Below, piece after piece: positions 17,196 through 38,974 of a stretch of 64,000 bases of DNA. A program made the translations under genes and the position numbers. The stretch is from a virus (lineage: Duplodnaviria; Caudoviricetes). The stretch's first letter is position 1. Each line of letters starts with the position of its first letter. Where the stretch lies: the IMG/VR virus record IMGVR_UViG_3300028797_000148, positions 1 through 64,000 of that record; one strand, given 5' to 3'. A model generated the notes under the pieces. It was not told the origin of the DNA. It saw only the letters and a program-made list of their open reading frames with translations, and searched no databases.

Positions 17196-17514
17196 CGATA
17201 GATTGGAGAATGTAGGCGGCATCAGAGGCCGTGCCTATGTGATGTTCGGTGGCAAGGTTGCACTTGGCACATTCAACGACGGTGAGCGTTTCGGCGGTAT
17301 TGCCTTTGCGGAGCTTCTTGACAAGAAAAACGTCGGTGACGATATTTCCAACAAGGAGCATTACGATGCGCAGGTCTATATCGAGGTGAAAAGCCTTGAG
17401 TCGTTGCAGGCGTTACGCGATGTGCTGGATATGTGCGAAAGCGCACTAAAAGACCAATTGGAAAAAGACCGCCTTGATGCAATAAATGGCGCAAAGGGCG
17501 AAACGCAAGTTTAG
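17185..17514 (+). CDS. Hypothetical protein
   Basis: Start taken at MKTDDRL. Confidence 0.55.
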   Translation: MKTDDRLENVGGIRGRAYVMFGGKVALGTFNDGERFGGIAFAELLDKKNVGDDISNKEHYDAQVYIEVKSLESLQALRDVLDMCESALKDQLEKDRLDAINGAKGETQV

Positions 17515-17534
17515 TAAATCAAAAGTTCACGAAA

Positions 17535-18359
17535 ATGGAAGCAAATATTAAAGAGTTAGTAAAAGACCCATCAGCATTGAAACTTTATCTGCTTGATAAG
17601 TTCGGCATGGTGGATGAGCCAAAGACCGTAGATTTCTGCAAGGAGGCTTACAAGTTTATCATGGATGGCGACATGCTACAAATAGTCGGCTTGGAGGCAA
17701 AAACGGGTATGCCCGTAGCAAAGCGCGTGTTTGGCATGAACATGGACGAAAAAGGAAACGTCCAAATGCACGGCGAAATACCTCCTTACATGAGCATCCA
17801 ACTGAAAGATGGCGTTTATTTTGTCTACGAGGATATTGACGGTAGCCGCCGTTGCGAACTTTTTGATGGTAAGAACGAAAAGGAGAATATCCAATACATT
17901 GCCTTTAAGTTCGGTGCTGTATCGCTGAAACTTTGGGGCGAGGACTTGGGAGAATTTCCGCTTACAACCAAAAAGGAGGCTGATGATGATTCGTGTTATA
18001 TCACGTCTTATGCAAAAGCAGCCTGCGATTTCAACGGTAAACGTTGGACTGAGTTGCTTGTGGAGCGTGGACTCTCGTTTGAACTTCCGAAAGACGACAA
18101 AAACGAATGGTACATTCCCGCTATTGGCGAGTTGTACGTGATGTATATATTTAAGAACTACATCAACGATGCCTTGAAGTACGCCAAGCGCAAGCCGTTA
18201 AAGGACGCTTGGTATTGGAGCAGTACGGAGACCTCTGCCGCGAGTGCTTGGGGTCTGGATTTCAACAATGGCGGCTTCTTCTACAACTACTACTACTGCC
18301 TCAAGACGGGTGAGAACTTAGTTCGCCCCGTGTCCGCATTTGACCCGTTATCGCTTTAA
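17535..18359 (+). CDS. C-type-lectin-fold (DUF1566-like) protein; remote DGR target
   Basis: DFNG..WT, WYIPAIGEL, YWSSTE...VRPVSAF motifs; 3' end matches TR except at TR adenines. Confidence 0.9.
   Translation: MEANIKELVKDPSALKLYLLDKFGMVDEPKTVDFCKEAYKFIMDGDMLQIVGLEAKTGMPVAKRVFGMNMDEKGNVQMHGEIPPYMSIQLKDGVYFVYEDIDGSRRCELFDGKNEKENIQYIAFKFGAVSLKLWGEDLGEFPLTTKKEADDDSCYITSYAKAACDFNGKRWTELLVERGLSFELPKDDKNEWYIPAIGELYVMYIFKNYINDALKYAKRKPLKDAWYWSSTETSAASAWGLDFNNGGFFYNYYYCLKTGENLVRPVSAFDPLSL
18224..18339 (+). repeat. DGR variable region VR2 (116 nt)
   Basis: Aligns to TR; 10 substitutions outside the AAC tract, all at TR adenines; 8 NNC codons replace (AAC)4. Confidence 0.92.
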
Positions 18360-36018: not shown

Positions 36019-37296
36019 CTATGGATTATCCGATATAAAAGGCTGTGTATCAACGGGTATCTCTATGCCAGCCAGCTCAAAATTTATCGGGTCTTTCATG
36101 TAATACACCTTTGGATAATCGTCAACACAGCCCGTCCGTTTCGTGTTACGCAAAAGATGGATGCTTTCGTAGTGGCCTTTTACGTAAATCTTTGACCATA
36201 TTTCGGGTGAAATCATACCTATAAGCTTGCGACGTATGTGGTACGTATCATATTGTCGCATAACACCAAGGTAGCTGTTTATGCTTTGCATGTTATGCAC
36301 CAGCTTCTTGTGCGATGTGGAAAAGTTGTTTAGGCGGTATATGGCGTCGTAGGCGTTTCTTACGGTACGAACACCGACGTATGTGCGATATGGCTTAACA
36401 ACCGCACCTATAAACGCCACACCCTTTGTATAGTGCTGGAAATAGAATTTGTCGGGATGCAGGTAAACATGCAGGTAAAGGCTCAAGAAACGCCGTATCT
36501 TTTCCATGTCCTTGAGCATTTTCTGCTTTTCCTCTTCCGTTTCGCAAACGGCCATGAAATACCCGTCGTCCACATACCGACCGTGATATTTGTACCCAAG
36601 CTTTTCTATGTGAACATCAAGCCAATGCAAAAGGAAATTGGCATTATGCTGGCTCGGCAGATTACCTATTGGCAATCCAAGACCTGCACCGTTTGTAAAT
36701 AATGATTTGTTCTTTGGCAATTGCCTCCATAATTCATCGGGGCTATGCCTGCGGCAGTCCTTTTCGGGCTCATGCAGCATAACCACCTCACTAAGCCAAA
36801 GAATATCCTCCTTATCCTCGCCGAAATAGTTGTCCTTGATGAACTGCAAGAGCATCTTGTTAAGCAGCTGCACATCAATAGACATAAAGAATCCCTGCAA
36901 GTCGAATTTGGCTATCCAAACATCTTTCGTGTAACCCTCGCTACATTCGTACATATCCTTTTCCAATTGCGCCACACCGTACATTACGCCCTTACCCTTG
37001 CGGCAGTTGAATGTCCTATCTGTGAACAGCTTCTCGAGCAAAGGCTCTACACGCATGGCGATATAGTGATGCACGATTCTATCGCGAAATCCCGCAGCGA
37101 ACACCTCCCGCAGTTTCGGTTTCGTAACCACAAAGGCGATGCTTGTTGATGGTCGGTAAGTTCGGGCGTTTATCTCATCAGCCAATCTAAGTAAATCCCG
37201 CTGATAATCGGGGAAATACTTTATATAAGATGGCGATGATGCCTTGTGAATCTTACAAATTTGGAATGCCTCAAATAAGTATTCATCCCTTACCAT
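36019..37296 (-). CDS. DGR reverse transcriptase
   Basis: FRDRIVH, GLPIGNLPSQ (DGR-type GxxxSQ), YVDD active site; adjacent TR and Avd. Confidence 0.96.
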   Translation of the reverse strand: MVRDEYLFEAFQICKIHKASSPSYIKYFPDYQRDLLRLADEINARTYRPSTSIAFVVTKPKLREVFAAGFRDRIVHHYIAMRVEPLLEKLFTDRTFNCRKGKGVMYGVAQLEKDMYECSEGYTKDVWIAKFDLQGFFMSIDVQLLNKMLLQFIKDNYFGEDKEDILWLSEVVMLHEPEKDCRRHSPDELWRQLPKNKSLFTNGAGLGLPIGNLPSQHNANFLLHWLDVHIEKLGYKYHGRYVDDGYFMAVCETEEEKQKMLKDMEKIRRFLSLYLHVYLHPDKFYFQHYTKGVAFIGAVVKPYRTYVGVRTVRNAYDAIYRLNNFSTSHKKLVHNMQSINSYLGVMRQYDTYHIRRKLIGMISPEIWSKIYVKGHYESIHLLRNTKRTGCVDDYPKVYYMKDPINFELAGIEIPVDTQPFISDNP

Positions 37297-37387
37297 AGCA
37301 CAAAAATATATTCCGTTATATACCGTCTATTATACCATTCCAATATTGGAGCGCAAACTTTATTTATTGTCTTGTGTATTCTATCAG

Positions 37388-37491
37388 ATGCGGACACGGG
37401 GCGAACTAAGTTCTCATTCGTCTTGTTGTTGTTGTTGAAGTTGCCATTGTTGAAATTCAGATTCCAAGCATTCGTGGCAGAGTTCTCCGTA
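37388..37491 (-). repeat. DGR template repeat TR (104 nt)
   Basis: 13 AAY codons; differs from VR1 and VR2 only at adenines (plus the VR2 expansion). Confidence 0.96.
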
Positions 37492-37738
37492 AAACACGTC
37501 CGTTTTCTTATTCTTAACTCCTTCATCAGTACCATTGCTGCCGACGACGCGAGAACAACAATCGCGGCAATGTTTCGGAAAGCGTGATGATGCCCAACAA
37601 GAGAGGCCACATTCAATCCTTGTACTGAACGCTGGGAGTGGGACGCCCATTTGAAAGAAAAACACATTGCTCCCGCCAAACTAAGGCTAAAGAGCCCCCG
37701 ATGTGAATCTCTACTATATTGAAACATGTCTTTTGTCA

Positions 37739-38095
37739 TTATTTCATAGTAGCCTTGCGCCAACCAGTCGCCTCGCGGCCTATCTCATCGAGCCTACGGG
37801 CGATATTCGCGTGGGATTTTTCGTCGATAATCTTTTTATCCTGCGATAATGCAAGCAAGAAGAACAATTGCTCTTGCACAAGGATGAAATCCCTGCCAAG
37901 CACACGGACACGTTCCTCGGAATTTGGCGGGCAAAGATTAGCCTCAACGATTTTCATACTAAGCTGTAATGTCAAATCCTCGATGCGGCGGGCTATCGTT
38001 GCACGGTATTCCGCTTTAATCTTCTTTGTAACGCCAAACACGTATTTCGCGAGTTCAAACGTATCTTTGTATATCTTTGTATCTCTTGCAAGCAT
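37739..38095 (-). CDS. avd: DGR accessory variability determinant
   Basis: 118-aa basic helical protein ending EIGREATGW, located between target and TR. Confidence 0.88.
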   Translation of the reverse strand: MLARDTKIYKDTFELAKYVFGVTKKIKAEYRATIARRIEDLTLQLSMKIVEANLCPPNSEERVRVLGRDFILVQEQLFFLLALSQDKKIIDEKSHANIARRLDEIGREATGWRKATMK

Positions 38096-38227: not shown

Positions 38228-38974
38228 TTAATAAAATGCGGACACGGGGCGAACTAAGCCCTCATACGTCTTGTAGTAGTCGTTGAAGTAGCCAAGGGTG
38301 AAACGCAGATGCCAAGCACTCGTGGCAGAGTACTCCGTAGAAGACCATCCCCAAGACGAACCGACTGGAATTGCAGTACCGCTGATTGCCGCCATGACGA
38401 AGTTGATTTCGCGGACGTGCGCCCAAATCATTGCCATCTCGCCGAGTGAAGGCAACCACCAGCGGCCAGCACCCATATTGGCGTCGGCAGAATCGACATT
38501 GCTGGGGTGATACTCGTTGCAATACTTTGCGGCAGGCGCGTTTGCACCGAGCGTTGTCAGAATGGTGTCCGTCTTTGCGCGGCCATCGAAATCGGCAATA
38601 GCCGTGCGGCGGTCGGTGATGAAGGTAGTGCCACCCGTAACGTTAGATGTAGCCCATGCCTTTGTCGCTTGGTCTTTCGCGATGATAAGCGTGCGCCCGT
38701 TCTCGATGATACCCGCACCAACGGCGATGCTGGCGATGCTGCTTTCCAATGCACGGTCGGCAGGCCAAAAACGTGTGTATGAATCCACGTTTGTAACCAC
38801 CATAACGTTTCCGATGGTAGGCAGTACGCTTTGCAGCTTCTTTGCGAAGTTGGCGTAGGAGTCGCTACCCATAAGCTCGTTGCTGGAGTTAAGGATAGGC
38901 ACGCGAGCACCCGATGCAGCAGCCGTAGTGTTGGCATTGTGCAGGGCTTTAAGAGCATTTTGAATTGTTCCCAT
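38228..38974 (-). CDS. C-type-lectin-fold (DUF1566-like) DGR target, probable receptor-binding tail protein
   Basis: DFDG..T, WWLPSLGEM, WSSTE...VRPVSAFY; last gene of the tail-fibre block. Confidence 0.9.
   Translation of the reverse strand: MGTIQNALKALHNANTTAAASGARVPILNSSNELMGSDSYANFAKKLQSVLPTIGNVMVVTNVDSYTRFWPADRALESSIASIAVGAGIIENGRTLIIAKDQATKAWATSNVTGGTTFITDRRTAIADFDGRAKTDTILTTLGANAPAAKYCNEYHPSNVDSADANMGAGRWWLPSLGEMAMIWAHVREINFVMAAISGTAIPVGSSWGWSSTEYSATSAWHLRFTLGYFNDYYKTYEGLVRPVSAFY
38236..38339 (-). repeat. DGR variable region VR1 (104 nt)
   Basis: Ungapped match to TR with 15 mismatches, all at TR adenines. Confidence 0.96.

Follow-up and report, generated by a model that had tools for sequence, protein, structure and literature searches.

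In-frame doubling of an AAC-templated tract in the remote variable repeat of a phage DGR: evidence favours a length gain during retrohoming

DGRs are usually described as elements that change the sequence of their targets at fixed length. Length differences between the template repeat (TR) and the variable repeat (VR) were found in 25 of 372 DGRs by Wu et al. 2018 (NAR 46:11-24, PMC5758913, Fig. 4C-D), with 14 DGRs carrying indels of a multiple of three nucleotides and 74% of the indels adjoining AAC, and template slippage by the reverse transcriptase (RT) was proposed there for in-frame TR/VR indels at AAC repeats (PMC5758913). A 2026 study of the reconstituted BPP-1 DGR (PMC12875486) repeats slippage as a posited model, and BPP-1 cDNA made in vitro displayed rare 1-bp indels only (PMC6182149).

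The window, meaning the whole 64-kb stretch of DNA analysed here, is the first part of a phage record in IMG/VR, 84,652 nt long and rated complete by CheckV. It carries a complete phage DGR, in which the RT, TR, Avd and target 1 all lie on the minus strand and a remote target 2 lies on the plus strand, 19 kb from the cassette. Like the prototype BPP-1 (mtd-avd-TR-brt), this element combines an RT with Avd, places the TR between avd and the RT gene and shows adenine-specific substitutions. The GC-rich 3' end common to TR and VR, beyond which the sequences diverge, the AAC-rich template codons and a receptor-binding target of lectin fold are further features shared with BPP-1. The components are as follows.

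36019-37296, minus strand: DGR reverse transcriptase, 425 aa (Pfam RVT_1, phrog_1423, PDB 8ub7)
37388-37491, minus strand: template repeat (TR), 104 nt, flanked by avd and the RT gene
37425-37436, minus strand: TR tract (AAC)4, template of the expanded tract
37739-38095, minus strand: Avd accessory protein, 118 aa (PF22296 bAvd, phrog_3206 'Avd protein of DGR')
38228-38974, minus strand: target gene 1, 248 aa, containing VR1
38236-38339, minus strand: VR1, with a 4-codon tract at 38273-38284 (AAC GAC TAC TAC)
17535-18359, plus strand: target gene 2, 274 aa, with a C-terminal Lcl_C/C-type-lectin-like domain bearing VR2
18224-18339, plus strand: VR2, the remote variable repeat, TACGGAG...GTCCGCAT
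18279-18302, plus strand: VR2 tract, eight NNC codons encoding FYNYYYCL, residues 249-256 of target 2

The RT matched Pfam RVT_1 with 40.1 bits and phrog_1423 at 4.7e-67, and its top PDB sequence match was the bRT of BPP-1 (8ub7, E 1.1e-12), the profile and PDB sequence matches together marking it as a DGR-type RT. The Avd protein, whose gene adjoins the TR, exceeded the cut-off of PF22296 bAvd with 41.3 bits. On the minus strand the TR reads GGC AAC TTC (AAC)4 AAG. The GC-rich 3' end is identical in the TR, VR1 and VR2 through GTTCGCCCCGTGTCCGCAT, and the flanks diverge beyond it, constituting a candidate IMH/IMH* pair. Target 2 has no signal peptide and is neighboured by RecT and replication genes. 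Its N-terminal part is swapped among relatives that are otherwise 92-97% identical, giving forms of 260, 261, 270 and 274 aa, and these swaps (window 17471-17997; L012, L015, L016 and L038-L046) keep the C-terminal lectin-like domain together with VR2.

The tract of VR2 reads TTC TAC AAC TAC TAC TAC TGC CTC, so that eight codons stand opposite the (AAC)4 of the TR. An earlier note on this DNA had described eight NNC codons gained in frame by 12 nt in VR2, and four codons, AAC GAC TAC TAC, in VR1; the letters at 18279-18302, compared with those at 37425-37436, and at 38273-38284 bear out both readings. The gain of 12 nt lies precisely opposite (AAC)4, and the third position is C in 8/8 codons, an outcome with a chance of about (1/4)^8 = 1.5e-5 by simple arithmetic. 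Elsewhere in the repeat, VR2 departs from the TR at 10 of the 92 positions compared; 10/10 are adenines in the TR, which has A at 27 of the 92, and the 65 non-A positions are all unchanged. The corresponding chance, again by simple arithmetic, is about (27/92)^10 = 5e-6. All of the differences between VR1 and the TR (15/15) likewise fall at adenines, and neither repeat has a substitution at any other TR base. With only 7/12 bases in common, the first and second 12 nt of the VR2 tract are no tandem duplicate; the sixteen adenine-derived positions were therefore mutagenised independently.

Since VRs are polymorphic in populations and assemblers can build chimeric paths, the long tract might be an assembly artefact in a hypervariable region. 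The identical 274-aa protein with the 8-codon tract is recorded in JGI, Logan and ENA assemblies, and the loci L029 and L039 are base-identical; a single-assembler artefact is therefore unlikely, although one sample may underlie all of these assemblies. Longer tracts also recur across many unrelated samples, always with frame and NNC kept. Moreover, a tract of 24 nt falls below the k-mer length used in assembly, which makes repeat loops unexpected, and an artefact is considered extremely improbable.

Exact-protein look-ups led to many near-complete relatives of about 80-86 kb, whose sample names point to rumen metagenomes. The main allele set comprises 29 distinct VR alleles (L001-L053; 19 VR1 and 10 VR2) from close relatives that share this TR, each allele being a consensus sequence from a metagenome assembly. 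Of these, 26 differ from the TR at adenines only, and in each of the other three one non-adenine position has changed as well. Tract length is four codons in 21 alleles, five in six, six in one and eight in one, the VR2 of the window; contractions number 0/29, and every tract codon is NNC, including those of the seven other expanded alleles. Length variants of 3n nucleotides, for which the earlier note had suggested looking in related genomes, are thus present in 8/29 alleles, and the length of VR2 is not invariant, with orthologous alleles holding 4, 5 or 8 codons. Expansion affects 4/19 VR1 and 4/10 VR2 alleles. Single-codon gains dominate, making up 6/8 expanded alleles in the close relatives and 34/40 in the distinct sequences of a wider survey; a gain of three was never seen, and a gain of four was seen twice, in the VR2 of the window and in P0234. 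With gains only among the 29 alleles, either selection works against short loops or the mechanism itself has a direction.

The wider survey covered 214 distinct homologue sequences, made up of cluster representatives, which may be the longest members of their clusters, and some listed cluster members. The tract had two residues in one sequence, three in one, four in 168, five in 38, six in four and eight in two, the second 8-residue tract being the unrelated GYGDYYGY of P0234. Lineages with other TRs or frozen VRs are mixed in this survey (W-containing tracts, a shared GxLGI tract, the cassette-less L034). It tends in the same direction as the close relatives but is only indicative because the templates are mixed, and the argument therefore rests on the close relatives with the same TR.

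The composition of the tracts bears on whether the length changed in the VR DNA after retrohoming, by replication slippage or unequal recombination unrelated to the DGR. The TAC TAC TAC in VR2 is a short tandem repeat that could slip, which speaks for such a process. However, the perfect (AAC)4 of the TR should then slip more readily than the imperfect tracts of the VRs, but its length is stable; the eight codons of VR2 represent no duplication, and a gain of four codons would take several separate events. Adjacent identical residues occur in 10/34 five-residue tracts versus 62/164 four-residue tracts. With 24/34 five-residue tracts lacking any adjacent identical residue, the extra codon is therefore usually no copy of its neighbour, which stands equally against a change at the DNA level. 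Simple codon duplication in the VR DNA was rejected on this scarcity of adjacent identical residues, and a DNA-level change of any kind is judged very unlikely. The stable perfect repeat of the TR, the variable imperfect tracts of the VRs and the scarcity of neighbour copies point to the retrohoming step rather than to slippage or duplication in the VR DNA.

The other source named by the earlier note, a different TR allele with eight AAC codons, calls for a survey of templates. Across the 84,652-nt record, the search returned the TR, VR1, VR2 and a 17-nt chance match, which is intergenic and outside the window, and no second or longer TR. Read as DNA, 20/23 related loci have (AAC)4 as their TR tract. 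In addition, an open reading frame predicted by the gene caller across the TR allowed TR alleles to be surveyed as proteins: among the variants listed for cluster P0109, 13/15 read NNNN (about 80 contigs) and 2/15 read NNNRY (5 contigs). In the genome, the 23 TR loci, the roughly 85 contigs of TR-ORF variants and the pattern scans, no TR exceeded five codons and none had five or more pure AAC. The (AAC)8 allele itself was accordingly found neither in the genome and the 23 loci nor among the TR-ORF variants (about 80 contigs) and the pattern scans.

As for these scans, the pattern GGCAACTTC followed by five AAC had no match in the viral contig collection, and its four matches in genome contigs turned out to be unrelated Asn-rich gene ends in Bacteroidales MAGs. 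A scan of genome contigs with the shared 3' element gave only chance matches in unrelated MAGs. The phage database searched contained no close relative, and a look-up by a 109-aa neighbour protein matched the window's own lineage only.

Two kinds of altered template were encountered. In L022 (3580-3710; also P0108 and P0265, 5 contigs) the TR tract is AAC AAC AAC CGC TAC, with two of its five codons not AAC, and the VR1 on the same scaffold, CTC CTC AAC CGC TTC, tracks the altered template. Heritable length variants of the TR thus do occur, at low frequency. L036 (1989-2860) and L037 (1277-2150) are Logan contigs, each from a different sample. Their TR locus, bordered by TR-specific flanks and placed between avd and the RT gene, contains a VR-like, adenine-depleted sequence with the 5-codon tract GGC AAC GAC GGC ACC. 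The VR1 of these contigs is nearly identical to their own TR locus, with three A-to-N and two non-A differences. It looks like a natural TR was overwritten there by mutagenised cDNA or by VR-to-TR conversion and now serves as a new template.

A longer TR allele that wrote VR2 could have been ancestral and have contracted since, or it could have belonged to a co-infecting relative; in either case VR2 would not have been rewritten afterwards by the present (AAC)4 TR. Its appeal lies in the existence of altered-length TRs (L022 and P0265; L036/L037), tracked by VR1 in L022 and in L036/L037, and in the rare rewriting of a remote VR2 that is possible in the L019 genome, where nine non-adenine changes are the same across samples. 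VR2 departs from the present TR at adenines only, so any other allele would have to be recent and match that TR in everything but the tract. Against it stands the lack of any TR with more than five codons or more than four pure AAC in the genome, loci, variants and scans. Furthermore, an (AAC)4 TR and a longer VR1 occur on the same contig in L019, L026, L027 and L052, and ERZ27280280 k141_689747 unites an (AAC)4 TR (L049) with a 5-codon VR2 (L041) in one record. Counting the window, six genomes join an (AAC)4 TR and a longer VR in this way, and these six independent genomes would each need an expansion of the TR and then a return to exactly (AAC)4. Authorship of VR2 by a longer allele is therefore regarded as unlikely.

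The evidence favours a length gain during retrohoming, with slippage of the RT on the AAC repeat as the most likely route, which was also the reading of the earlier note. For VR2 in particular, the chances are about even that it is the mutagenic retrohoming product of (AAC)4 with four units added by RT-Avd slippage during cDNA synthesis. In the proposed sequence of events, RT-Avd would copy (AAC)4 and lose register on the repeat, where the primer end would pair poorly because two-thirds of the tract bases are adenine and often misincorporated. Repeat units would then be re-copied by RT-Avd and mutagenised one by one, independently, resulting in eight NNC codons. Finally, the longer cDNA would replace VR2, and a surface loop of the lectin-like ligand-binding domain would grow by four residues. 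Placing the length change at cDNA synthesis rather than at integration is an inference.

Slippage within retrohoming is favoured by the dominance of single-unit gains and by the presence of expansions in both targets. Mutated adenine positions amount to 65% in expanded versus 48% in unexpanded tracts (Fisher p = 0.012), and outside the tract to 48% versus 41% in the same two classes of alleles (p = 0.09). The heavier adenine mutation of expanded tracts fits slippage promoted by mismatched primer ends, but selection could likewise be the cause of this heavier load and of the surplus of long alleles. Other observations weigh against slippage. RT-Avd of BPP-1 gave only rare 1-bp indels in vitro, at 0.1% (PMC6182149), a backward slip of four units leaves the primer end almost without correct pairing, and altered-length TR alleles do occur (L022; L036/L037, with 5 codons). 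No RNA structure of the TR that would stimulate slippage was detected, as the fold is no more stable than that of shuffled sequences (z = +1.4) and the tract is unpaired.

The absence of +3 and the two occurrences of +4 would also agree with a new tract having been attached to an old one during integration. According to this explanation, a normal 4-codon cDNA was joined out of register to the old VR2 inside the NNC tract, at the variable 5' junction of retrohoming, with the old tract kept and the new one added (4 + 4 = 8). The VR2 tract is exactly twice the template tract, +4 is seen twice (the window; P0234, GYGDYYGY) and +3 never, and, as with slippage, the TR would stay unchanged and the codons would be independently mutagenised. 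Yet the commonest class is +1 (6/8; 34/40), as unit slippage predicts, and contractions should be about as frequent as expansions, whereas 0/29 were seen. The third-position C would moreover be the only microhomology in the misaligned register. Misaligned integration is held to be rather improbable, and slippage on the repeat during cDNA synthesis is retained as the preferred route.

The predicted consequence for the protein was examined with an AlphaFold (AF2) model of target 2 built from 53 homologues. The two target domains scored 26.5 bits and 30.8 bits (the latter for target 2) against Lcl_C PF07603, both below its cut-off of 34.9, and target 2 also matches phrog_4245. In the model the lectin-like domain has a pLDDT above 85 over most of its length, and residues 249-256 of the tract form a loop of lower pLDDT, about 64. 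Foldseek matched the model to 4eps (E 3.3e-4) and 8q4e (E 3.1e-3, rmsd 1.1 over 79 columns), with weak C-type lectin and Mtd matches in addition. Taken together, the Pfam score below cut-off, the model and the Foldseek matches place the VR in the ligand-binding part of a C-type-lectin-like domain. The loop extension put forward in the earlier note agrees with this model, the tract being situated in the lower-confidence loop of the lectin-like domain.

Several relatives depart from the arrangement of the window. Compared with window 36270-38028, L017 (Ga0310696_10020917) has a deletion of most of the RT, the TR and most of avd, with target 1 and a diversified VR1 kept; apparently its DGR is dead and its VR frozen. 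L034 (2501-3238) and L035 (769-1506) encode a target-1 homologue with the 6-residue tract SHGYGT, which is almost the same in P0214. Directly after this homologue comes the gene found past the RT in the window, with no avd, TR or RT, and it looks like the target was inherited there without the cassette. The VR2 of the closest target-2 homologue (P0001, 270 aa) is found in L031 (1650-1813), which belongs to the same record as L019. It carries nine non-adenine differences from the TR of its own genome, one of them in the GC-rich 3' element, and is identical in 9 contigs from several samples; the remote target seems to be no longer rewritten in this lineage. An ENA contig of 153,810 nt (ERZ27257207) has a DUF723 gene at the position of the DGR cassette instead of the RT, avd and target 1. 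A contig of identical length is also listed for the TR-ORF, target 1 and target 2 proteins of the window. The ENA contig may have been assembled as a chimera or concatenate from two strains, of which one lacks the cassette.

It is a tentative thought that loop-length diversification is a frequent and possibly selected output of the DGR in this rumen-phage lineage and not a rare error. If it is, the element makes a binding loop differ in length as well as in sequence, like the CDR3 of antibodies. If the RT also alters loop length at AAC runs, the accessible repertoire exceeds the usual 15^n counts, and programs for finding DGRs that allow no gaps would overlook such targets or score them wrongly. 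With its short constant template, two targets, many near-complete genomes and about a quarter of alleles expanded, the phage family offers a handy natural test system for the slippage model.

Among known proteins, the best structural likeness of target 2 is to the DGR-diversified type V pilus or fimbrial tip proteins of Bacteroides (BACOVA_04982, 4eps), which have an Lcl_C-type domain, and the C-terminal domain of Legionella Lcl (8q4e), of the same type, is the top Foldseek match together with 4eps. Unlike the pilus tip proteins and Lcl, target 2 is phage-encoded and without a signal peptide, and its N-terminal part is unrelated. The DGR differs from that of BPP-1 in having two targets, one of them 19 kb off, on the opposite strand and among recombination and replication genes. 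For BPP-1 we know of no reported tract expansion. The phenomenon seen in VR2 was already described by Wu et al. 2018, and VR2 is a clear and unusually large further example that introduces no new principle. Like the cases of Wu et al. 2018, it has an in-frame indel opposite AAC repeats of the TR, here a multiple of three, and extra codons with the signature of adenine mutagenesis, namely NNC in VR2 and in seven other expanded alleles. It differs from them in that nearly all of their in-frame cases were Lineage 4-related and mostly non-phage, whereas the DGR here is a phage one; in the large gain of four codons, which doubles the tract; and in the population evidence of one constant TR with 29 alleles of 4-8 codons. 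New here are thus a +4 gain in a phage DGR and a constant template beside which about a quarter of natural alleles are expanded and none contracted.
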